Sequence record: NC_025430.1
DNA: 42,351 nucleotides
DNA from: Escherichia phage vB_EcoM-ep3
Strand: one strand, 5' to 3'
The notes beneath the pieces were generated by a model that did not search any database, was not told where the DNA came from, and worked only from the letters and a program-made list of their open reading frames with translations. Shown one piece after another: positions 2,382 through 42,351 of the stretch (positions are counted from its first letter, which is position 1; each line of letters opens with the position of its first letter). A program made the translations under genes and the position numbers.

Positions 2382-3524
2382 TTAAGCCGCACCAACCAGG
2401 TGGGCGTTTTTGTTGGCGTGCCACGCTGGCAGGCTGATGGTCTGGATTTTATCGCCGTATCCAGGCCAAACACCTGTGCGCACGCATTCAGCGTAGACAC
2501 GCAAATCATGCTGGTATTGTGCGCGGCCAATTTCTACGCCTTCGCTATCCAGTACATAAACACCAACTGCGTAAGGCGGTTTTTTCTCAACGGCGATAAA
2601 CGCAAAGTGTTTAGGATAACCACGCCAGAAATCAGGGCGGCAGCGGCACAGAACACCGGTCACCGGATCAGTCCAGTAAACTGATAATTCTGCTTTGCCT
2701 TCGTGCGGAGGCGTGCACTTGCCCTGTTCCAGAGCCAGACGCGTGCCGTCCATGTAGTATGCGTGTTGCACGTCATAGCGCCAGTTGGCGATTGATTTTG
2801 CGAACCCTTCCGGGCTGGCATCTTCGGTGGTTTTCAAGTCACCAATGATGTCTTTGACGTGGTGCAGGATAGCGAACGCTGCCGGATGATTCATTACCGC
2901 GTCACGCATGGCAAAAATTTGTTCAAACGCTTCCGGTGATAGCACTTTGCGTTCGCTGTTATTGCGCTGCCATTCTTCCAGCACATCTGACCACAGTGTG
3001 ACTTCAACGCCGTTGGCGCGCAGCAGGTTGGCCAGCTCATGACGGCTGCCGCTGGTGGATAGTTTGCCAGGACGGTCAATATTCAACTGGTTGATGATTT
3101 CTTTCAGGTCTGGCGCTTTCATCGCGTTAAGCTGTTCAGTAGTCCAGGTTTCAACAGGCTGGTTTTCCAGGATGCGTTCAACCAGTTCGCCTTTGTTGCC
3201 ACCAGTCAGCAGCTTAGGCAGGCGGCCTTCGTTCAGCTTGTTGACCATTTCCACCAGCACTTCACGGTCATCAATAGCATCAGGCACATCAGGACGGCGC
3301 AGCGCCAGGCAATAGGTTTTTGCGAATTCTTCCGGTTCAAGAATTGCCATATGCACAGCCGTGCCGATTTCCTGCGCTGGTGTTGGCGTGCGGTCATTAG
3401 CAGCAGTCACAACAGCGTTGTAGTGCATCGGGCTGCGGTGCACCAAATCCAGGCCAGATTTACTGATGCCTGGTCCGCCGTGGTATTCAGCGTTGGGAAT
3501 ACCTTCGTAAACTCCTGGTTTCAT
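2382..3524 (-). CDS. PD-(D/E)XK-type nuclease (phage exonuclease-like)
   Basis: About 380 aa; N-terminal GIPNAEYHGG...SKSGL motif typical of phage RecB/Cas4-like exonucleases; start moved to ATG at 3524 (MKPGV) with GAGG 8 nt upstream, rather than the longer ORF-track start at 3539. Confidence 0.7.
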   Translation of the reverse strand: MKPGVYEGIPNAEYHGGPGISKSGLDLVHRSPMHYNAVVTAANDRTPTPAQEIGTAVHMAILEPEEFAKTYCLALRRPDVPDAIDDREVLVEMVNKLNEGRLPKLLTGGNKGELVERILENQPVETWTTEQLNAMKAPDLKEIINQLNIDRPGKLSTSGSRHELANLLRANGVEVTLWSDVLEEWQRNNSERKVLSPEAFEQIFAMRDAVMNHPAAFAILHHVKDIIGDLKTTEDASPEGFAKSIANWRYDVQHAYYMDGTRLALEQGKCTPPHEGKAELSVYWTDPVTGVLCRCRPDFWRGYPKHFAFIAVEKKPPYAVGVYVLDSEGVEIGRAQYQHDLRVYAECVRTGVWPGYGDKIQTISLPAWHANKNAHLVGAA

Positions 3525-5216: not shown

Positions 5217-5320
5217 TAGAGTAATTAATAGGTATAACCGATTGGCGATATTTACCAAAGGAAATGTATAGTTATTTCACCGGCACACAGGTGCCCAACA
5301 ACAAAAGAGGAAACACCCAA

Positions 5321-5989
5321 ATGGCACGTTTAACCGCTGCAATCCGTGATGGCATCATTGCCAACGCAATCAAAACCAAAGACTTTGCAGGCCGTGACAT
5401 GGCTATTGTTCAGAAGCGCGCTGATTTTGCTGAACGTCTGCGCAAGTATGCGCTTGCACAATATGGCCTTACTGATGCGCGCCTTATTGAAATTAAAAAG
5501 CAGATTGAAGAACTGCAAAACGAAGTTAAGCACGAAGGAGCAAGGTTCGTTCGAATTACTTTTGACTCAACTAACCGTGCTTGGGATGTGAACCTGGCAG
5601 GACAGGCGCGCAGGCTTTATCTTGATGGTACTTGTTCAGGGGAAAGCGTAAAACCGCTTTATAGTGATTCACGCGTAGAATACAGCGACGATAAAATTAC
5701 TCCACATTTCCATGAATCTGATTTCACAGTGCGCGATCCTAAATGGCGCGAAGAACTGGACGCCATTGACCTGGAAGCGGCGCAACTGCGTGAAGAATAC
5801 AACACGCTTAAATCAACACTGGCAGCGACAATTTCAGGATTCACGACGGTGGAAAAACTTCTGGAAGCCTGGCCAGACGCGAAAGAACTGATTCCAGAAA
5901 CAACGCCGATTGCTAAACATCCAGGAACAGGCATTGCGCTGTCGGTAGCTGAACTTAACGCGCTGTGTGGAATTCCTACCGGAAAATAA
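5321..5989 (+). CDS. hypothetical protein
   Basis: ORF trimmed to ATG 5321 (MARLTAAIRD) with AAGAGG 10 nt upstream; coding-like composition, coiled-coil-like central region; no family recognised. Confidence 0.55.
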   Translation: MARLTAAIRDGIIANAIKTKDFAGRDMAIVQKRADFAERLRKYALAQYGLTDARLIEIKKQIEELQNEVKHEGARFVRITFDSTNRAWDVNLAGQARRLYLDGTCSGESVKPLYSDSRVEYSDDKITPHFHESDFTVRDPKWREELDAIDLEAAQLREEYNTLKSTLAATISGFTTVEKLLEAWPDAKELIPETTPIAKHPGTGIALSVAELNALCGIPTGK

Positions 5990-8134: not shown

Positions 8135-10444
8135 ATGAGTGCACAACAAAACTATAAGGATTTGACCGAACAGGAAATTGCAGAAGCACTTTCCTACATC
8201 GACGCCGGTTGCGACCGTGAAACATGGGTGCGCATGGCGATGGCGGTTAAATCGGAACTAGGCGACGGCGGTTTCACCGTCTGGAATGACTGGTCACGCC
8301 AGTCTGACAAGTACAACAGCAAAGACGCGCGCGACACCTGGAAATCAGTGAAGCGTCACGGCGGCATTGGCATTGGCACCCTGATTGGTGAGGCGCAGCA
8401 GTTCGGCTTTTCCCTGAACGATGCAGAACGCACGCCGCTGACAGCGGAAGAAATCGACGCACGCAAGCGCAAGCGCGAAGCCGAAGAAAAGGCAGAGCAG
8501 CAGCGCCGCGCCGAACGTATGGCGCAGGCAGCCGAACAGGCGCGCAACATATGGGAATCAGCCACCGAACTGGAAGGCGATGAACACCCCTATTTGCAGC
8601 GCAAGCAGGTGCAGGCGTTCGGCCTGCGCGTTGGGCGGTTCTGGACCGAAAAGCGCAGCATTGATGGTGCGCTACTGGTTCCTGTGCGTAACATTGACGG
8701 GCAGATCACCAGCTTGCAGGCCATCTTCCCGAACGAAAACCCACAGCTAGGGCGTGACCGTGATTATTTGCCTGGCGGCCAGAAGCGCGGATGCTTCCAC
8801 GTCATAGGCGGCAAGCCGACTGGCGGAAGCCCGGTTATTGTCATCTGTGAGGGCTATTCAACCGGCGCGTCAATCCACCAGGCAACCGGCTACTGCGTTG
8901 TAGTGGCGTTTGATGCCGGTAACGTTCCGACCGTGGCCAAGTTGATGCGCCAGCAGTTCGGACGCGCAACAATTGTTGTGGCAGCCGATAACGACCAGTG
9001 GCACGAAGATGGCAAGCAAAATGATGGCGTTCACTACGCGCGCCAGGCCGCAACCACATGCGGTGGCCTGCTGGTGGTTCCGAAGTTCGCCGCATTAAGC
9101 GACAAGCCGACCGACTTTAACGACCTGCACAACCTGCAAGGGCTGGCAGAAGTTAAGCGGCAGATTAACGCCGCAATACCTGAACCGGCAAATGACAACT
9201 TTCTGCCGCTGGATGCAACGGTCAACCCGTTCATGTACCCGCACATGAGCCACCAGCAAAAGCCATTAAGCACCTGGGAAAACCTGGAATGGCTGCTGGA
9301 ACAGTACGGCATCACGGCGCGATATAACGAAATCAGCAAAGATGTGGTGGTGACCATTCCAGGGCGTGACTACGGCGTTGACGCTGCGGCCAACTGTTCC
9401 CTGGCGGAAGTTTCCAGCCTGTGTGCCCGCAACGGTATGCCAAAAGGTGATGTGGGCGACTACATCAAGCTGATTGGCGTGGCCAACCGTTACAACCCGG
9501 CTGCTGATTTCATCACGTCACGGCCATGGGATGGCGTCAGCCGCATTTATGACCTGGTTGACACCCTGACCACGCCGGAAGGCTTTGACCGCAGCCTGGT
9601 GCTGATGATGGTGCGCCGCTGGCTGATTTCTGCCGTGGCTGCCGTCATGAAGCCAACCGGGTTCTGGTCCAAAGGCGTCCTGGTGTTACAGGGTGACCAG
9701 TCATTGGGGAAAACGTCCTGGTTTAAAGCACTGCTGCCGCCGACCATGCGCGACCTGGTGAAAGATGGCGCGACCATCGACCCTAGCAACAAAGACAGCG
9801 TGACCACCGCGATTGGCCACTGGATGGTTGAGCTGGGCGAACTAGATGCAACGTTCCGCAAGGCTGACATTGCCAGGCTGAAATCCTTCATCAGTTCTGA
9901 CGTGGACATGCTGCGCCGCCCTTATGACCGGCTTGAATCGAAGTACCAGCGCCGAACGGTGTTTTTTGCGTCAGTGAACCCCAAACACTTCCTGGCCGAT
10001 GACACCGGGAACGTTCGCTGGTGGACCATTCCGGTGACCGGCGTGAACTACGCCCACGACATCGACACGCAACAGTTATGGGCAGAAGTGGCGCAACTGT
10101 ACCGTGACGGCGAACGCTGGTGGCTGGATCGTGATGAAGAAGCCATGCTGGAAGGCGTCAACAAGGAACACGAATCCATTGACCCGGTAGAGGAAATGAT
10201 ACTGGCGCGCTTTGAGTGGGGCAGCGAACGCATCAGCGCCTACCGCGAACATACCGCCAGCCAGGTGTTGCAGGAAATCGGATTTGATAAGCCGAACAAG
10301 TCACAGGCCACGCATTGCAGTAACGTGCTGCGCAAGCTGACCGGGCAGGAACCGCGCAAGACGAAAAACGGGCGGTTCTTCAACCTGCCGCCGAAGGTGT
10401 TGCAGCCGGATTACCGGCGACCAGATGACAATTCACCGTTTTGA
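8135..10444 (+). CDS. DNA primase-helicase (P4 alpha-like)
   Basis: 769 aa; N-terminal primase-like region, TOPRIM-like acidic motifs (VIVICEGYSTG, VVAADNDQ), C-terminal NTPase region with Walker A QGDQSLGKTS; size and domain order match P4 alpha-type primases. Confidence 0.88.
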   Translation: MSAQQNYKDLTEQEIAEALSYIDAGCDRETWVRMAMAVKSELGDGGFTVWNDWSRQSDKYNSKDARDTWKSVKRHGGIGIGTLIGEAQQFGFSLNDAERTPLTAEEIDARKRKREAEEKAEQQRRAERMAQAAEQARNIWESATELEGDEHPYLQRKQVQAFGLRVGRFWTEKRSIDGALLVPVRNIDGQITSLQAIFPNENPQLGRDRDYLPGGQKRGCFHVIGGKPTGGSPVIVICEGYSTGASIHQATGYCVVVAFDAGNVPTVAKLMRQQFGRATIVVAADNDQWHEDGKQNDGVHYARQAATTCGGLLVVPKFAALSDKPTDFNDLHNLQGLAEVKRQINAAIPEPANDNFLPLDATVNPFMYPHMSHQQKPLSTWENLEWLLEQYGITARYNEISKDVVVTIPGRDYGVDAAANCSLAEVSSLCARNGMPKGDVGDYIKLIGVANRYNPAADFITSRPWDGVSRIYDLVDTLTTPEGFDRSLVLMMVRRWLISAVAAVMKPTGFWSKGVLVLQGDQSLGKTSWFKALLPPTMRDLVKDGATIDPSNKDSVTTAIGHWMVELGELDATFRKADIARLKSFISSDVDMLRRPYDRLESKYQRRTVFFASVNPKHFLADDTGNVRWWTIPVTGVNYAHDIDTQQLWAEVAQLYRDGERWWLDRDEEAMLEGVNKEHESIDPVEEMILARFEWGSERISAYREHTASQVLQEIGFDKPNKSQATHCSNVLRKLTGQEPRKTKNGRFFNLPPKVLQPDYRRPDDNSPF

Positions 10445-10451
10445 ATAATAA

Positions 10452-10475
10452 CCCGCTTCGGCGGGTTTTGTTTTT
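10452..10475 (+). terminator. intrinsic terminator after the primase gene
   Basis: CCCGC-TTCG-GCGGG hairpin (10452-10465) followed by TTTTGTTTTT. Confidence 0.8.
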
Positions 10476-10540
10476 ATTGATAGGTATAAACGATTATATC
10501 ATTTACATAAGTAAATATAGAATTCATCTATCGAAAACGA

Positions 10541-10565
10541 GACAAACCAAACAAACCAAACAAAG
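10541..10565 (+). repeat. CA-rich tandem repeat leader (CAAACCAAA x2.5)
   Basis: GACAAACCAAACAAACCAAACAAAG directly upstream of the methyltransferase ATG, where no Shine-Dalgarno is visible; shares the 8-mer GACAAACC with the 17-bp motif. Confidence 0.5.
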
Positions 10566-10567
10566 TA

Positions 10568-11545
10568 ATGGGTAGCATTGTGAATAAATACGAATTGCAT
10601 TTAGGTGATTGCCTGGAAGTTATGAAGTCTATTCCAGCCGGTAGCGTTGATTTGGTTCTGTGTGATCCGCCGTATGGCACCGCTGGCGGAATGGGAAAGG
10701 GTGAAGAACGCTATTCACGAATTGCGAACGCTGAATGGGATAACGCTATTTCTCCGCAGGCCATTTTTGAAGAATGCAACCGCGTTTTGCGAACTAACGG
10801 CGCTCTTATTCTGTTCAGCCAGGAACCTTACACCAGCAAGTTAATCACAGCGGCGCATGGAAATCTGCCTTTCAGTTATCGACTAATGTGGCTGAAAGAC
10901 CATTTCTCTAACTCGCTGTTGGTAAATAAAGCGCCTGTTTCATACTTTGAAGATTTAGTGGTGTTCTTCAAGAAATATGACACGCTGGCACAGCATCCGC
11001 TAAGGGATTATGCCAAAAAAATCATGGAATACATTGGCAGAAATATAAAGCAGATAAACACTGATTTAGGTCACAGGCGCGCGGAACACTTTTTTTATGT
11101 TGAATCAACGCAGTTCGGGCTGTGTACTGAAAAGACATACAACCAGATTATTGCGCACTATGGGCTTAGTGTGTGTGACTGGCTTATGACTTATGCTGAA
11201 ATGTTAGAAATTGACCGCAGGTTTGCCCGCAGGTTTAACCTGGCGGATGGTGCAAAATACAAATCTAACGTTCTTCAGTACAAAAAGGATTATACCGGCC
11301 TTCACCCAACACAGAAGCCGGTAGCACTGCTGGCTGACATCATCAGGACATATTCAAACCCTGGCGAAACGGTTCTAGATTTCACTATGGGGAGCGGGTC
11401 AACAGGAGTCGCCTGCATCAATGAAGGCCGTAACTTCATAGGAATTGAACTTGATGAAACCTATTTCCAGACAGCGCAGGGGCGCATAATGGAAGCAGCA
11501 GCCGCAAACGATAACCAGGCAAGTAGCAATTCTGTTGTAGCATAA
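10568..11545 (+). CDS. DNA methyltransferase (N6-adenine/N4-cytosine, beta-class)
   Basis: 325 aa; motif IV LCDPPYGT precedes motif I LDFTMGSGSTG (beta-class order); AT-rich relative to neighbours; no cognate restriction enzyme gene nearby. Confidence 0.85.
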   Translation: MGSIVNKYELHLGDCLEVMKSIPAGSVDLVLCDPPYGTAGGMGKGEERYSRIANAEWDNAISPQAIFEECNRVLRTNGALILFSQEPYTSKLITAAHGNLPFSYRLMWLKDHFSNSLLVNKAPVSYFEDLVVFFKKYDTLAQHPLRDYAKKIMEYIGRNIKQINTDLGHRRAEHFFYVESTQFGLCTEKTYNQIIAHYGLSVCDWLMTYAEMLEIDRRFARRFNLADGAKYKSNVLQYKKDYTGLHPTQKPVALLADIIRTYSNPGETVLDFTMGSGSTGVACINEGRNFIGIELDETYFQTAQGRIMEAAAANDNQASSNSVVA

Positions 11546-11592
11546 CCACCATTCCCCACCAGTGTGGGCCAATAAAAACGAGGTAACACCCG

Positions 11593-12420
11593 ATGAAACA
11601 AGTAACGATTGACAACGTGCGCGAGCGCATAGCGGAACTGGAAATGGTCAACAGCCACGGTGAACTGTCACTGCGCGGCGAATTTGAACTGGCGTGTTTG
11701 CGGATGCTGGCCGATTCAATGGGCGGCGTTGATGATGACGTGCGCAACGTGGTGGCCCTGCTGGAAAACAACGAATGGGCCGAGCACTGCACTAAAACAG
11801 AGCTTGGCCAGCGCCTGGAAAGCGAAATAACCCGCCTGGTTGGGGACGTGCAGCCAGTGCCGGTGGTAAGCGATGCTGACCCATCACTAAACGCCATGAT
11901 GCGTGCGCTTGATGCGTTCTATGCTGATGACTATGTGCCGGAACGTGCCATGCTGGCAGCTTTCAGAATCCTGCTGGCGGATGTGCGTGAAAAGCCAGCG
12001 CCGGTGGTAACTGATGATAGGCTGCTGGAAAACCTTGAAACGCGCATCAAAAGCCTGGAAATCGGTGAACGCAAAGGCGCATTGAGCACGCATCAGGAAA
12101 TCAGCCTTAAGGCGTATCGCCTGACTGTCCAGTGTCTGCGTTCGTCTGCCATCAGTGATGAAACAGACAACACCGCGCAGCAGTTCGAATCGTTGGCTGG
12201 CATCAATGCGAACAAACATCATGACCAGTGGGTGAATTGCAGCGAAAGGCTTCCAGATCGCTTCCGTGACGTTCCTGTGATGCTTTCTGATGGTTCCCAG
12301 CGAGTTGGGCGCATCAATCATAAAGATACCTGGCTGATTGCCAGTTACCACCATACAAAGCACCAATATACAGGCGACGTTGTTATGTGGTTCGACACGC
12401 CTAATCCCACCAGCGAGTGA
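11593..12420 (+). CDS. DUF551-like domain protein
   Basis: 275 aa; GAGG RBS; C-terminal WVNCSERLPD...VMWFDTPNP resembles the DUF551 pattern found at the C-terminus of many lambdoid early proteins. Confidence 0.55.
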   Translation: MKQVTIDNVRERIAELEMVNSHGELSLRGEFELACLRMLADSMGGVDDDVRNVVALLENNEWAEHCTKTELGQRLESEITRLVGDVQPVPVVSDADPSLNAMMRALDAFYADDYVPERAMLAAFRILLADVREKPAPVVTDDRLLENLETRIKSLEIGERKGALSTHQEISLKAYRLTVQCLRSSAISDETDNTAQQFESLAGINANKHHDQWVNCSERLPDRFRDVPVMLSDGSQRVGRINHKDTWLIASYHHTKHQYTGDVVMWFDTPNPTSE

Positions 12421-13507: not shown

Positions 13508-13942
13508 ATGGAATTACCGCGCACTGTGCAGGAAATAGCTGACGTTATTGGCCGTGAACGTGCGCTATATCTTATCGGACAACTACCAAAATTGTGGGTG
13601 CCATCGCAGCAGTACCACAAAGTAATTTTGTATGTGCCAAAGCGGATTCGGCCCAATGACCCCCTGGTGAAAATTCTTGGATGGAGTGACGCCAGCAAGA
13701 TGGTGCAGCACTTCGGTGGTGAAATGCTTCACCCGGCTAATTGCGAATACATTTACCGCCGTTTCATCCACAGCAGCATCAAGCGGATGCACAGCGAAGG
13801 AATGGACGCAAAAGCCATTGCGGAACTGCTGGACGTTTCAGAACGCACCGTGAAGCGGCACTGCACTGACAAACCCCACAAAGACACATCACCTGCAAAT
13901 GACAACACTCCCGAACGACTACTAACCGCTATGGGGCAATGA
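13508..13942 (+). CDS. Mor/C-family-like transcriptional activator
   Basis: 144 aa; GGGGG RBS; central FGGE...P segment and C-terminal HTH (MDAKAIAELLDVSERTVKRH) resemble the Mu Mor/C late-activator layout; sits immediately upstream of the lysis and structural genes. Confidence 0.55.
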   Translation: MELPRTVQEIADVIGRERALYLIGQLPKLWVPSQQYHKVILYVPKRIRPNDPLVKILGWSDASKMVQHFGGEMLHPANCEYIYRRFIHSSIKRMHSEGMDAKAIAELLDVSERTVKRHCTDKPHKDTSPANDNTPERLLTAMGQ

Positions 13943-18794: not shown

Positions 18795-20350
18795 TGAAAC
18801 TGTGGCCATTTACCAGAAACAAGCCTGCCGAACAGGCACAACAGCCGCGCACGCGGCGTTTACCGCTTAACCGCCTGGCGTCCCGTATGTTTACCGGTGC
18901 CAGTGTTGACCGTTTTGGCACCGCGTGGGGTACACAGCCGCTGACGGCTGATGAAGTCATTACCAAAAATCAACGCATCCTGGTGGCCCGTTCCCGCGAA
19001 CAGGCCGCCAACAATGATTATGCCAAAAAGTTCCTGCGTCTGTGCCGCACAAACATTGTGGGGCCAAAAGGCGTTCTGTTGCAGGCAAAAAGCCAGGATA
19101 ACACCGGAAAACTGGACACCCTGGCGAATGAAGCCATTGAACTGGCGTTTGACGCATGGGGCAAAAAGACCAACTGTGACGTGACCGGTAAGTTGTCCTG
19201 GCGCGCCATCCAGGCCGCCTGCGTCAACAGCGTGGCCAAAGACGGTGAATTCTTCGTGCGCCTGGTGTTTGGGGCTGACGCAGGGCCGTGGGGCTTCTCG
19301 CTGCAACTGCTGGACCCGCAACGCTGTCCTGTGGACATGGTTGAAGATCGACTGCCAAACGGAAATTTCATCCGCCAGGGAATCGAGTTTAACCGATACG
19401 GGCGGCCTATCGCGTATTATTTCAGCACAGTTGATGAATCGGATGAAAACTACCGTTGGGCTGGGCGTGACTTCGTGCGCGTGCCTGCGGATGAAATCCT
19501 GCACGGTTTCTTTGATGACATGGTGGGCCAGAAACGCGGCCTGCCCTGGATGGCCACCAGCCTGTTTCGTATGCGCCACCTGGGCGGCATGGAAGAAGCC
19601 GCACTGGTCAACGCGCGAGCAGGTGCCAACAAAATGGGGTTCATCGAATGGGATGAAAACGGCGCTGGACCTGAATTCGACGATGAAGACGAACTGATCA
19701 TTGACAGTGAACCGGGTGAATTCCAGGTGCTGCCACAGGGCGCACGCATCAAAGACTGGTCACCGCAATACCCCAACGGCGAATTTGCCGTGTTCACCAA
19801 ACAGATGCTGCGCGGCATGGCTTCTGGCATGGGCGTGGCTTACAACAACCTGGCCAACGACCTGGAAGGCGTCAATTTCAGTTCCATCCGACAGGGCACG
19901 CTTGACGAGCGCGAAAGCTGGAAGGAATTGCAGGAATGGCTAATCGAAAACCTGCACCAGCCTGTTTTTGACGCCTGGCTGCCGCGCGCCCTGCTGTCTG
20001 GACGCATCACGGTGAAAGGCCGCAGCCTGAAACCGGAACGCATAGACCGTTACAGCAATATTGAATGGCAGCCACGCCGTTGGGCCTGGATTGACCCGTC
20101 ATCTGACGTGGAAGCGGCTGAAAAATCAAAAAACAACATGCTGCAATCGCCTGGCCGCATCATCCGTGAAGGTGGCAGCGACCCTGACACCGTTTGGAAG
20201 GAAACCGCTAGCGACGTGGCACGCATGATTGAGGCGTACACGCAGCACGGTATCAGCCGAGAAATGGCGGAAAAACTGGTCATGCAAAGCATGGGCATGG
20301 ACAAAACACTGTTAATGGGGCAGCAAAATGCAGAAAAACCTGCTGAATAG
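18794..20350 (+). CDS. portal protein (lambda gpB-type)
   Basis: 518 aa, directly after the terminase/gpW-like genes; size and position match lambda-type portals. Confidence 0.88.
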   Translation: MKLWPFTRNKPAEQAQQPRTRRLPLNRLASRMFTGASVDRFGTAWGTQPLTADEVITKNQRILVARSREQAANNDYAKKFLRLCRTNIVGPKGVLLQAKSQDNTGKLDTLANEAIELAFDAWGKKTNCDVTGKLSWRAIQAACVNSVAKDGEFFVRLVFGADAGPWGFSLQLLDPQRCPVDMVEDRLPNGNFIRQGIEFNRYGRPIAYYFSTVDESDENYRWAGRDFVRVPADEILHGFFDDMVGQKRGLPWMATSLFRMRHLGGMEEAALVNARAGANKMGFIEWDENGAGPEFDDEDELIIDSEPGEFQVLPQGARIKDWSPQYPNGEFAVFTKQMLRGMASGMGVAYNNLANDLEGVNFSSIRQGTLDERESWKELQEWLIENLHQPVFDAWLPRALLSGRITVKGRSLKPERIDRYSNIEWQPRRWAWIDPSSDVEAAEKSKNNMLQSPGRIIREGGSDPDTVWKETASDVARMIEAYTQHGISREMAEKLVMQSMGMDKTLLMGQQNAEKPAE

Positions 20351-22376
20351 CATCATTGGGGCCGAATTTACCCGCAAATCAGACAGCAAAACGCTGCCTG
20401 ATTTCAACAAAGGCGGGCTGGTGCGCACTATGGAAGTGCGCAAGTTTGACACCGAAAAACGCACCGTAGAACTGGCGTTTTCCTCCGAAATCGAGGTTGA
20501 ACGCTGGTACGGTATCGAAATTCTGGACCATTCGCCGGAAAGCGTGCGCCTGGACCGTCTGCGTGACGGTGGGGCGCTGCTGGTTGACCACGATTGGACT
20601 GACCAGGTGGGCGTTGTTGAATCCGTCAGCATTGACGCTGACCGCCGGGGGCGGGCTGTGGTGCGCTTTGGCCGAAGTGCACGCGCTGACGAGATTTTCC
20701 AGGACATCGTTGACGGCATTCGCAAGCATGTTTCCGTTGGCTACCGCGTGTTAGCGGCCAAGCTACAGGAAACGCGTGACGAGTGGCAGGATGTCTACCG
20801 CATCACTGAATGGGAACCGTTCGAAATTTCAATTGTGAGCGTTCCCGCTGACACCAGCGTTGGCATTGGGCGTGCGTTTGACAAACCCCAAGAAGAACAA
20901 CGCGGCATCAAATCCGATACTGCGGGCACCGTAGAGGTTCCAGCACCAAAAAAATCATTTGAGGATTCACGAATGTTAGAAAAAATTCTGCGCGACGCTG
21001 CCGGTAACCTGGTGCGCGCGATGGTAGACGAGAAAGGCAACATCACGCAGGTTCTGGAAATGCTGGAACGTGCTGGCGATGATGCGCGCAACGCTGAACA
21101 GCGTGGCCGTGAAGCGGAAAAGGCGCGCGTGCGTTCCATCACTGAAATGGGCGAGAAGTACAACGCACGTGACCTGGCTTTGAAAGCTATTGGCGAAGGC
21201 ACCACCGCCGAAGATTTCCAGCGTTCCTTGCTGGACCACCTGAACAAGCCGAAAGACCCGGCACAACCGGCTGATGACACCCGTTCCGGCAGCAAGCCGC
21301 TGTCAGAAATGCCGTCCAGCGTGATTGGTATGTCTGACAAAGACATCCGCCGCTATAGCATTTTCAACGTGGTTCGCGCGCTGGCTAACCCGAACGATGC
21401 AGCCGCACAGCGTGCCGCAGCGTTTGAAATCGAATGCAGCCACGCAGCGCAACAGCAGTATGGCCGCAGTGCAAAAGGCATCCTGATCCCTGACGATGTT
21501 CTGCGCGCATTCAACGCTGGTGGCGCACCGAACACCCCGACAGGTGCACAGACCGGTTCCAACCTGGTTGGCACTGACTTTATGGCCAGTTCGTTCATCG
21601 ACCTGCTGCGCCCGCGTACCACCATCATGCGCCTGGCGCGTACTATGGGCGGCCTGGTTGGCAACGTTGAAATTCCGAAACAGACTGGCGGCGCTACTGC
21701 CTACTGGATTGGTGAAGGTGATGACGCAACCGAAACCACGCCGACCATCGGCCAGCTTAGTTTGTCACCGAAAACCGTTGCGGCTTACACCGACATTACC
21801 CGCCGCCTGCTGATGCAATCCACCCCGGATGCGGAAGCTATCGTGCGCGGTGACCTGGTGGCAGCTATCGCGCAGGCGATTGATTACGCTGGCTACTACG
21901 GCACCGGCACCAGCAACCAGCCGCTGGGTCTGGCGAACTACACCGGCATTAATGCGGTAGACTTCGCAGCAGCCAACCCGACTTATGCGGAACTGGTGCA
22001 GATGGAAACCGAAATCGCGGCTGACAACGCTGACGTGAACAACATGGCATATGTGCTGAACGCGCGTGGCCGTGGTGCAGCGAAAACCACGCCGAAGTTT
22101 GCCAGTGGTTCTTCCGTGGCTGACGCTGGCGTGATTTGGGAACCGGGCAACACCCTGAACGGTTACCGCGCCGAAGTTACCAACCAGGTTCAGGATGGTG
22201 ACGTGTTCTTTGGCAACTTCGCTGACTTGGTTGTTGGTATGTGGGGCGGCCTGGACATGACGGTTGACCCGTATAGCCTGAGCAAATCCGGTGGCCTGCG
22301 CATCGTGGTATTCCAGGACGTGGATTTTGCGGTGCGCCGCGTTGAATCCTTCTGCCTGGGCCGCAACGCAGCATAA
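20328..22376 (+). CDS. prohead protease-scaffold-major capsid fusion protein (HK97-fold)
   Basis: 682 aa; N-terminal about 200 aa prohead-protease-like, central charged coiled-coil, C-terminal about 350 aa HK97-like major capsid region; internal in-frame ATG at 20973 with GAGGA RBS. Confidence 0.85.
   Translation: MQKNLLNSIIGAEFTRKSDSKTLPDFNKGGLVRTMEVRKFDTEKRTVELAFSSEIEVERWYGIEILDHSPESVRLDRLRDGGALLVDHDWTDQVGVVESVSIDADRRGRAVVRFGRSARADEIFQDIVDGIRKHVSVGYRVLAAKLQETRDEWQDVYRITEWEPFEISIVSVPADTSVGIGRAFDKPQEEQRGIKSDTAGTVEVPAPKKSFEDSRMLEKILRDAAGNLVRAMVDEKGNITQVLEMLERAGDDARNAEQRGREAEKARVRSITEMGEKYNARDLALKAIGEGTTAEDFQRSLLDHLNKPKDPAQPADDTRSGSKPLSEMPSSVIGMSDKDIRRYSIFNVVRALANPNDAAAQRAAAFEIECSHAAQQQYGRSAKGILIPDDVLRAFNAGGAPNTPTGAQTGSNLVGTDFMASSFIDLLRPRTTIMRLARTMGGLVGNVEIPKQTGGATAYWIGEGDDATETTPTIGQLSLSPKTVAAYTDITRRLLMQSTPDAEAIVRGDLVAAIAQAIDYAGYYGTGTSNQPLGLANYTGINAVDFAAANPTYAELVQMETEIAADNADVNNMAYVLNARGRGAAKTTPKFASGSSVADAGVIWEPGNTLNGYRAEVTNQVQDGDVFFGNFADLVVGMWGGLDMTVDPYSLSKSGGLRIVVFQDVDFAVRRVESFCLGRNAA
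20880..20896 (+). repeat. 17-bp motif GACAAACCCCAAGAAGA, copy 2
   Basis: Exact copy inside the capsid fusion ORF, same reading frame (DKPQEE); 93 bp upstream of the internal start at 20973. Confidence 0.9.
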
Positions 22377-41598: not shown

Positions 41599-42270
41599 TC
41601 ATTCGTCATCGCCTTCCGGAGTCATCGCGCCATGTTCCGGGCAGTGAGGCGGCCCGACCTCCAACCATTTTTGCGTTACCCGAACCGTGTAGCCGCATTC
41701 CTGGCATTCGCATTTTTTCAGCCTGGTGGTTTGCTTAGGCTTCGCCGTGGACGCACCGCCGACCGGTGCCACTTCGATTTCCTCCCCTTCATCATCGTCA
41801 CCGCCTTCATCCAGGCCGATGCGCAGGCGTGGCACTTTTATGGATATGCCACGGTCAAACGTCAGCTTGGCGTGCGGCATGGGGCCAAGTTCGTCCAGGA
41901 ACGGTTTGACGTACTCTTTGAATTTCTCGCCAGGCGTGGTGGCGGTCATCGGTCCATTCAGGCCAACAGCCTTGCACACAGTGGCAAACGCGCCCTTGTG
42001 GCCACAGTCAAAACCAACGGTGGCGTGCGTCAGTTCGTGCCACAGGTGGTTTGCGACCAGGTACGGTTCCACCTGGTCTGGCATGATGAATATTTCAAAG
42101 GTGTTGTCTGCACTGCACTTGCTGTGCCAGCACTGTGCCGCCGTACTGGACCGCGCGCCGCTGCTGCAAAAGCCAACTGACACCCGGAATTTTGGCATTT
42201 CATAGCCGAATTCTTTAAAACGCGGCGCAAACTTCGCCGCCAAAGCATTTAACCAACCTTCACGGTCCAT
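41599..42270 (-). CDS. SprT-like zinc metalloprotease with C-terminal zinc ribbon
   Basis: 223 aa; HExxH motif (WHELTHA) after a basic N-terminal region, acidic linker, C-terminal CECQECG...HCPEHG zinc ribbon; GAGG RBS and a perfect TATAAT (rc of 42306-42311) upstream on the - strand. Confidence 0.55.
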   Translation of the reverse strand: MDREGWLNALAAKFAPRFKEFGYEMPKFRVSVGFCSSGARSSTAAQCWHSKCSADNTFEIFIMPDQVEPYLVANHLWHELTHATVGFDCGHKGAFATVCKAVGLNGPMTATTPGEKFKEYVKPFLDELGPMPHAKLTFDRGISIKVPRLRIGLDEGGDDDEGEEIEVAPVGGASTAKPKQTTRLKKCECQECGYTVRVTQKWLEVGPPHCPEHGAMTPEGDDE

Positions 42271-42322
42271 ATATATTTCCTCTCAATGCGTTTAAACGTG
42301 TTTAGATTATACAAAGGCAAAG

Positions 42323-42344
42323 AAAAACCCGCCATAACGGCGGG
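42323..42344 (-). terminator. intrinsic terminator for a - strand transcript entering from beyond the window
   Basis: CCCGCC-ATAAC-GGCGGG hairpin (42328-42344) preceded on + by AAAAA; 22-nt near-identical to the terminator at 1-27. Confidence 0.6.
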
Positions 42345-42351
42345 GTGGTTA

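Follow-up and report, generated by a model that had tools for sequence, protein, structure and literature searches.

The locus comprises a DNA methyltransferase gene preceded by a transcription terminator, a promoter-like module and an A/C-rich leader (Table 1), all on the plus strand of the window, by which we mean the whole 42,351-nt stretch of DNA that was analysed. In a Pfam profile search the product matched PF01555 (N6_N4_Mtase) over residues 27-304 with 106.8 bits (2e-30; curated cut-off 26.7 bits), and the ORF matched phrog_67 with 5e-77. Motif IV, DPPY, was located at residues 33-36 (nt 10664-10675) and the SAM motif I, FTMGSGS, at residues 272-278 (nt 11381-11401). Since DPPY lies upstream of this FxGxG-type motif, the enzyme has the beta-class order. 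Both motifs fall in invariant columns of the family alignment; all of the family's invariant columns are kept in the window enzyme and the coding sequence is intact, while the length of the N-terminus varies across the family. The gene sits among early/replication genes, with a primase (PriCT_2/Toprim/VapE, 8135..10444) upstream and an EaA-like/DUF551-like gene, then phrog_4947, downstream.

Table 1. Features of the methyltransferase locus, in window coordinates
Feature	Position	Strand	Details
Intrinsic terminator of the primase/VapE gene	10450..10475	+	7-pair stem (5 G-C), loop of 4, T-run
Jilinvirus-native promoter-like module, TTGATAGGTATAAAC-N10-TTTACATAAGTAAA-TA-TAGAAT	10477..10523	+	recognised by conservation
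Cassette-derived A/C-rich 5' leader (TCGAAAACGAGACAAACC...AAAGTA)	10531..10567	+	alignment A1
Perfect tandem repeat, ACAAACCAA x2.6	10542..10564	+	TRF period 9, 100% match, score 46
Beta-class N6_N4 DNA methyltransferase CDS	10568..11545	+	325 aa from ATG, 321 aa from GTG
Annotated ATG start	10568..10570	+	anti-SD pairing -0.4 kcal/mol
GGGT, Shine-Dalgarno remnant	10570..10573	+	6 nt before GTG 10580; -3.7 kcal/mol
Segment with 88% DNA identity (104 nt) to the Webervirus methyltransferase	10577..10680	+	DNA comparison
GTG, conserved start codon of the cassette	10580..10582	+	in frame, 12 nt downstream of ATG 10568
Helical insert, aa 146-221	11003..11230	+	separates the N-terminal catalytic half from the SAM-binding half
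In-frame 12-nt tandem repeat, TTGACCGCAGGT x2.5	11211..11240	+	encodes RRFARRF; TRF score 46

The solved structures closest in sequence were adenine methyltransferases, namely the DpnA-type M1.HpyAVI (5hek), CcrM (6pbd), M.RsrI (1eg2) and M.MboIIA (1g60). Together with the DPPY motif, which suggests adenine specificity without proving it, these relatives make the enzyme probably N6-adenine-specific. The window protein has in common with the solved beta-class N6-adenine enzymes and the E. coli YhdJ family (NF008572) the domain, the DPPY-before-FxGxG order and the HPTQKP/SAM-binding half, but only its C-terminal ~65 residues resemble the solved enzymes in sequence. The protein reached none of the NCBIfam equivalogs (about 88 bits compared with a cut-off of 292 for YhdJ), and comparison with solved structures and NCBIfam returned no characterised close homologue. 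Unlike the short members of the N6_N4_Mtase family, it carries the helical insert of ~75 aa, which is also missing from the 254-aa Webervirus enzyme. The insert was modelled by AF2 as helical with a pLDDT of about 76-94, in a model that is weak as a whole (mean pLDDT 65, from a 16-sequence alignment), and it is probably the target-recognition domain.

Between 10400 and 11600 the window is 99.9% identical to Escherichia phage vB_EcoM_ECOO78 (NC_041926; Jilinvirus, Iiscvirinae). The sole difference in this interval lies at position 11307, the leaders are identical, and the ECOO78 ORF is already annotated there as gp09, 'DNA methyltransferase'. Outside the interval the window differs from the ECOO78 record, for example by another gene in the slot after SSB; judged by these differences, it is a close relative of ECOO78 and a separate isolate. 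In IMG/VR, ECOO78 was the only close relative of the methyltransferase protein. The nearest proteins, 80-93% identical, came from metagenome assemblies, and the close relatives came from Logan/ENA assemblies. Among 5,426 complete E. coli genomes the cassette had no DNA match on any chromosome, which leaves a prophage source in E. coli without evidence.

The gene behaves as a mobile unit. Jilinviruses that are devoid of the methyltransferase keep the same primase/VapE and EaA-like/DUF551 neighbours: in PT1, Alux-21, HeidiAbel/Bas97, ECO1230-10 and KA2-1 the cassette is missing, homology to the window stops at about 10515-10528, and an unrelated GC-rich segment precedes the EaA-like gene in the cassette's place. 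Elsewhere the cassette was recovered in five different contexts in unrelated phages. In a Jilinvirus-like contig that is 93.6% identical to the window's left arm (L005) it occupies a different slot, behind SSB, and a P22-like contig (L095) likewise has it behind SSB. L090/L091 carry it between Mu-F and portal genes, L008 carries it after a ParB-like gene, and in L098 it is followed by NinB. No nuclease partner was found beside the cassette in any recovered context, and domain and profile searches of the genes flanking the window methyltransferase found no nuclease domain. The GC content of the ORF is 0.453, against 0.533 for the window and 0.575 for the adjacent primase, with a GC3 of 0.469 compared with 0.684 in the primase, and a foreign, AT-rich origin of the gene is supported by this composition. 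The sequence-only reading had described an AT-rich beta-class methyltransferase, with motif IV before motif I and no restriction partner, and on each of these points it was borne out.

The 5' segment shared with Webervirus, a group of T1-like Klebsiella phages that includes BUCT556A, begins 3 nt upstream of the GTG codon and ends shortly after the DPPY codons, and beyond it the Webervirus enzyme retains only ~38% protein identity to the window; the gene is therefore mosaic, with a junction at DPPY. The Webervirus gene, annotated as 'DNA adenine methyltransferase', likewise has an A-rich leader and an upstream terminator, but differs in its strong AAGGAG Shine-Dalgarno sequence, the absence of a repeat, its length of 254 aa and the absence of the helical insert. 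In its lack of an endonuclease partner, its moron-like cassette and its early/replication position the window gene resembles the solitary methyltransferases with which phages protect themselves against restriction. The locus is of a commonplace kind, a solitary phage methyltransferase already annotated in ECOO78, and beyond annotation it matters little.

Upstream of the gene, the primase terminator is kept in PT1, Bas97 and Alux-21. The module that follows it contains a 5-bp inverted repeat (TTTAC/GTAAA) and a -10-like hexamer, TAGAAT, at 10518-10523. The same module follows the primase terminator in the methyltransferase-less Jilinviruses and in L005, and a second copy was found in the window at 5225-5270, upstream of the Nmad5 gene. 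The hexamer is conserved in function-like form (TAATAT, TAGTAT, TATAGT). A consensus scan called no canonical sigma-70 promoter at the locus and manual inspection found no -35 element at 16-18 bp from the hexamer; because of this, we infer no more than a probable phage promoter/operator at the module. Homology to the cassettes outside Jilinvirus starts at TCGAAA (10531). If transcription begins near 10530, the entire leader would have arrived with the cassette.

The leader is homologous to the TCGAAAGCAGCACAAAA... sequence of the other cassettes. In all cassette copies it is A-rich and C-containing, with one or two ACA triplets (for example TCGAAAGCAGCACAAAAAATAATGGAG and TCGGAGGCAGCACAAACAAGACATCAATGGGG). 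The window leader has three such triplets within its perfect 9-nt tandem repeat, which forms a 23-nt A/C-only run ending 4 nt before the ATG. Neither strand of the window has a longer run of A and C alone; over 200 shuffles the longest such run averaged 15.6 nt and never exceeded 21. The duplication of the 9-nt unit occurs in the window and ECOO78 only and is missing from all eight other cassette copies; no other allele of the leader or of the repeat was found in the viral, metagenome and genome collections searched. By comparison with these relatives, the repeat is a recent, lineage-specific duplication in a leader that was already A/C-rich in all of them.

The leader is predicted to be unstructured: folding of 10530-10600 gave an MFE of -4.9 kcal/mol (z +0.40), the centroid structure leaves the repeat unpaired, and the MFE structure does so almost throughout. 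When 10440-10620 was folded, the terminator U-tract paired with 10532-10545, to which the repeat contributes no more than roughly its first four bases. Long-range pairing between the leader and the U-tract, for which an inverted repeat of 74% complementarity was seen, was judged to be chance in low-complexity A/U sequence. Matches to Rfam families in 10300-11700 were all sub-threshold and driven by the terminator.

The start codon was examined by comparing the 20 nt before ATG 10568 with the 16S 3' end. The pairing energy of -0.4 kcal/mol is the third weakest among the 56 annotated genes of ECOO78, for which the median is -5.6 kcal/mol. At the in-frame GTG codon 12 nt downstream, the window reads GGGT-AGCATT-GTG with a 6-nt spacing. 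All eight other cassette copies (L005, L007, L093, L095, L100/L103, L101, L102 and Klebsiella Webervirus BUCT556A, L003) start at a GTG homologous to 10580 and read GG(A/G)G-TTTAATT-GTG-A..-AAATACGAATT, with a Shine-Dalgarno pairing between -5.4 and -8.2 kcal/mol compared with -3.7 kcal/mol for the window GTG. In L005, whose protein is 93% identical, in L007 and in BUCT556A the start has been called or annotated at this GTG, and the two closest proteins begin MNKYELHLGDC and MSKYELHLGDC, their first residue corresponding to V5 of the window protein. In alignment A1 the sequence is invariant from ATTGTGA onward into the coding region, and all columns upstream of it are variable. Six relatives read (C/T)AATGG(A/G)G; there an ATG overlaps the Shine-Dalgarno sequence out of frame, at -13 relative to the GTG. 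The window has its ATG at -12, in frame. The annotated ATG derives from the one in this ancestral (C/T)AATGG(A/G)G region. Given the conserved GTG with its Shine-Dalgarno sequence in the relatives, and the out-of-frame ATG in six of them, the simplest history is an ancestral GTG start behind a normal Shine-Dalgarno sequence, which small changes in the interval weakened while bringing the ATG into frame. The ancestral start codon is probably a different one from that annotated, which makes the N-terminus of the protein uncertain. We are highly confident both that the methyltransferase is solitary and mobile and that the GTG was its ancestral start.

These comparisons also bear on how the leader was first interpreted. 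The sequence-only reading had noted CA repeats before the ATG, which are present as the perfect 9-nt repeat, and the lack of a Shine-Dalgarno sequence, which holds for ATG 10568 but fails for GTG 10580 with its GGGT. The further proposal, that a dedicated CA-repeat leader may take the place of a Shine-Dalgarno sequence, is in that form unsupported by the relatives, in which the GTG is preceded by a normal one and the repeat is absent, being specific to one lineage.

The explanation that we regard as moderately probable combines a mobile methyltransferase cassette with a decayed Shine-Dalgarno sequence, split starts and a compensating ACA leader. In the ECOO78 lineage a self-contained cassette with a solitary beta-class, probably N6-adenine-specific methyltransferase was acquired horizontally and landed just 3' of the primase terminator and the phage-native promoter-like module, where the methyltransferase would have become the first gene of an early operon running into the EaA-like gene. 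The ancestral cassette started at the GTG corresponding to 10580; this was preceded by GGAG/GGGG-TTTAATT and, before that, by an unstructured leader rich in A and C and containing ACA. In the window phage the Shine-Dalgarno sequence has decayed to GGGT, the overlapping ATG has shifted into frame at 10568, and slippage has duplicated the 9-nt unit of the leader. Because the Shine-Dalgarno sequence has decayed and the ATG has come into frame, initiation would be weak and probably split between GTG 10580 and ATG 10568. The predicted fold places GTG 10580 in a weak hairpin, and this could work to the advantage of the ATG. The single-stranded, ACA-rich leader may serve as a landing site for the ribosome, through protein S1, and so partly offset the weak Shine-Dalgarno sequence.

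This last, compensating step is the tentative part of the explanation, and we rate it a little short of an even chance; that the duplication compensates for the decayed Shine-Dalgarno sequence is something we infer from a single lineage. ACA triplets and CA multimers have been described as position-independent translation enhancers in enteric bacteria, possibly acting via S1, and ACAA repeats as supporting initiation without a Shine-Dalgarno sequence (PMC3879156 and its references to Martin-Farmer & Janssen 1999 and Tzareva et al. 1994). By analogy with these documented enhancers, a translation-enhancing or standby role of the A/C-rich leader is plausible for the whole cassette family. The window leader resembles the yifK and dppA motifs, the CA repeats of Martin-Farmer & Janssen and the ACAA repeats of the TMV omega leader in E. 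coli in being A/C-only and unstructured, with repeated ACA upstream of the start. A difference is that the motifs of yifK and dppA work with a good Shine-Dalgarno sequence. The cassette and its relatives form a natural series from a strong Shine-Dalgarno sequence to a weak one with a repeat, which could be used to test compensation by an ACA leader.

A serious competitor, though we hold it for a minority possibility, is that the 9-nt repeat is a neutral slippage duplication in a gene that is poorly translated or decaying in this lineage. The restriction of the repeat to ECOO78 and the window would agree with this, as would the decay of the Shine-Dalgarno sequence, which fits relaxed selection on expression signals. 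The in-frame 12-nt repeat in the coding region, at which homologues differ by one extra 4-aa unit, is a second sign of slippage within the cassette and points in the same direction. Against it, the coding sequence is intact, with every invariant residue of the family kept, and the repeat leaves the leader purely A/C and unstructured, with no disruption.

It is doubtful, if still worth weighing, that ATG 10568 is the genuine main start, with the CA repeats as a dedicated enhancer or regulatory leader that has replaced the Shine-Dalgarno sequence and works independently of one. The in-frame ATG is a stronger start codon than GTG, and the RNA in which it lies is predicted to be fully unpaired; the repeat supplies additional ACA units, for which enhancement of translation has been demonstrated elsewhere, the Shine-Dalgarno sequence of the GTG is weakened, and, the N-termini of the family varying in length, four extra residues should be tolerated. 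Against this, the spacing of the GGGT remnant, which is downstream of the ATG, serves the GTG, the GTG is used by all eight relatives, and the origin of the ATG is readily explained by the old Shine-Dalgarno region, to which it belonged. Moreover, the same solution was met in no second lineage in the viral, metagenome and genome collections. The stricter evolutionary form of this idea, in which the expanded ACA-repeat leader came to drive S1-driven initiation at the new in-frame ATG, independently of a Shine-Dalgarno sequence and after its decay, we consider improbable. If true, it would be a natural and datable switch from a Shine-Dalgarno-led GTG to an enhancer-led ATG, with the ancestral state kept in the sister cassettes.

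The leader could alternatively be a regulatory target, either of a factor that recognises the 17-bp motif GACAAACCCCAAGAAGA or of the G/U-rich host small RNA GcvB, whose targets are C/A-rich. The motif is present in five plus-strand copies (13868, 18141, 20880, 25182 and 31405) and is conserved in ECOO78 and PT1. The octamer GACAAACC occurs both within it and at 10541, as the sequence-only reading had noted, and is over-represented in the window with 7 copies, all on the plus strand, against 2 expected. A link between leader and motif is unsupported: a search for the 17-mer with up to 3 mismatches matched the five known copies and not the leader, which ruled the leader out as a member of the motif family. 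By eye, 11 of 17 positions are shared; the first 8 bases are common and the second half is absent, giving 6 mismatches. In addition, ACAAAC is found at the homologous position in the L095 and L101 cassettes, and the DNA fetched for those phages contains no copy of the motif. Because of the 6 mismatches and the inheritance of ACAAAC from the cassette, the common octamer is most likely a coincidence. As for GcvB, which silences ACA enhancers in enteric bacteria (PMC3879156), duplexes of the leader with E. coli GcvB, whole or region R1, were no better than shuffles and genome background, a weak negative from a crude model. With R1 the leader gave -14.1 kcal/mol, weaker than the mean of -18.8 for 57-nt pieces taken across the genome, and in this crude duplex model 86% of genome windows paired at least as well. 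The GcvB pairing that defines the yifK and dppA leaders is therefore unsupported here, and the region holds no Rfam family match. We regard a regulatory target of either type as very unlikely.

Methyltransferases whose phase variation is controlled by simple repeats are known, and the tract is a perfect tandem repeat, but a switch that toggles methyltransferase expression by copy number is scarcely credible, as there are only 2.6 copies of the 9-mer, outside the coding region and the promoter spacer, in equal number in the two available genomes (window and ECOO78), and other alleles were not found in the viral, metagenome and genome collections.

Finally, under the explanation of a mobile cassette with a decayed Shine-Dalgarno sequence, the enzyme made during replication would methylate the phage DNA and thereby shield the progeny from host restriction enzymes with the same presumed target. 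Such an anti-restriction role, with which the sequence-only reading had found the gene consistent, is plausible. The Jilinvirus HeidiAbel, which has no cassette, was reported to be very sensitive to restriction-modification systems (10.1101/2024.09.12.612763), and this sensitivity offers a plausible selective reason for the acquisition of the cassette. A comparison of ECOO78 with methyltransferase-less Jilinviruses such as HeidiAbel could reveal what the enzyme protects against.

Within the methyltransferase gene, the first ~100 nt (window 10577-10680) showed 88% identity to the methyltransferase gene of Klebsiella Weberviruses; beyond this shared 5' end, the two proteins were ~38% identical. 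This is an intragenic recombination at the DPPY motif (the catalytic motif IV), by which the target-recognition and SAM-binding parts were exchanged behind a common 5' end. Because several homologues carry one additional 4-aa unit at the in-frame 12-nt tandem repeat, this site within the insert domain of the enzyme is a slippage hotspot.

In Jilinviruses without the methyltransferase, the same slot was filled by a GC-rich segment of ~200 nt that is highly conserved among them. Its termini, GGGCGGCGGC...GCCGCCC, are complementary, and ACCA comes after them. The segment, annotated in Salmonella phage PT1 as a minus-strand ORF, could be a non-coding RNA; it gave no Rfam match and no tRNA/tmRNA match, and its fold energy was unremarkable (z -0.84).

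The promoter-like module at 10477-10523 also contains a perfect extended -10 on the minus strand, TGATATAAT at 10493-10501, directed back into the primase terminator. This element, which is resembled by TGTTCTAAT in PT1 and has no counterpart in the Jilinvirus-like contig L005 or in the second copy of the module, may reflect chance or an antisense promoter. The gene immediately following that second copy encodes 241 aa with a Pfam Nmad5 domain (2e-36, region 5225-5989). According to PMC11846954, the Nmad5 of Dhillonvirus is a DNA-modification enzyme, and once it is mutated the Tmn defence no longer senses the phage. The window phage may therefore carry a second DNA-modification function.

The slot after the SSB gene is a variable site, with different contents in the window, in the closely related phage ECOO78 and in L005. 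Near-identical copies of the SSB terminator were found at both window ends (1-40 and 42320-42351), which suggests that the sequence has a terminal repeat or that its assembly is permuted. Finally, the 17-bp motif GACAAACCCCAAGAAGA occurred five times in the window against 0.1 copies expected and was kept in ECOO78 and PT1. Copies are located 50-115 nt 5' of late genes, and one is found within the 682-aa head ORF 20328..22376. The HTH 'late transcriptional activator' possibly uses the motif as its late promoter or regulatory site.

Coordinates and contents of the features discussed
Feature	Record	Position	Strand	Content
Promoter-like module, second copy	window	5225-5270		TTAATAGGTATAACC-N11-TTTACCAAAGGAAA-TG-TATAGT
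In-frame tandem repeat, 12-nt unit	window	11211-11240		encodes RRFARRF
HTH 'late transcriptional activator' gene	window	13508..13942		
17-bp motif	window	13868, 18141, 20880, 25182, 31405	+	GACAAACCCCAAGAAGA
Slot after SSB	window	41599..42270	-	223-aa phrog_6361 gene
Slot after SSB	ECOO78			'endonuclease'
Slot after SSB	L005			methyltransferase cassette
GC-rich segment	PT1 (L002)	3134-3345		after module
GC-rich segment	Bas97 (L104), Alux-21 (L105)			after module
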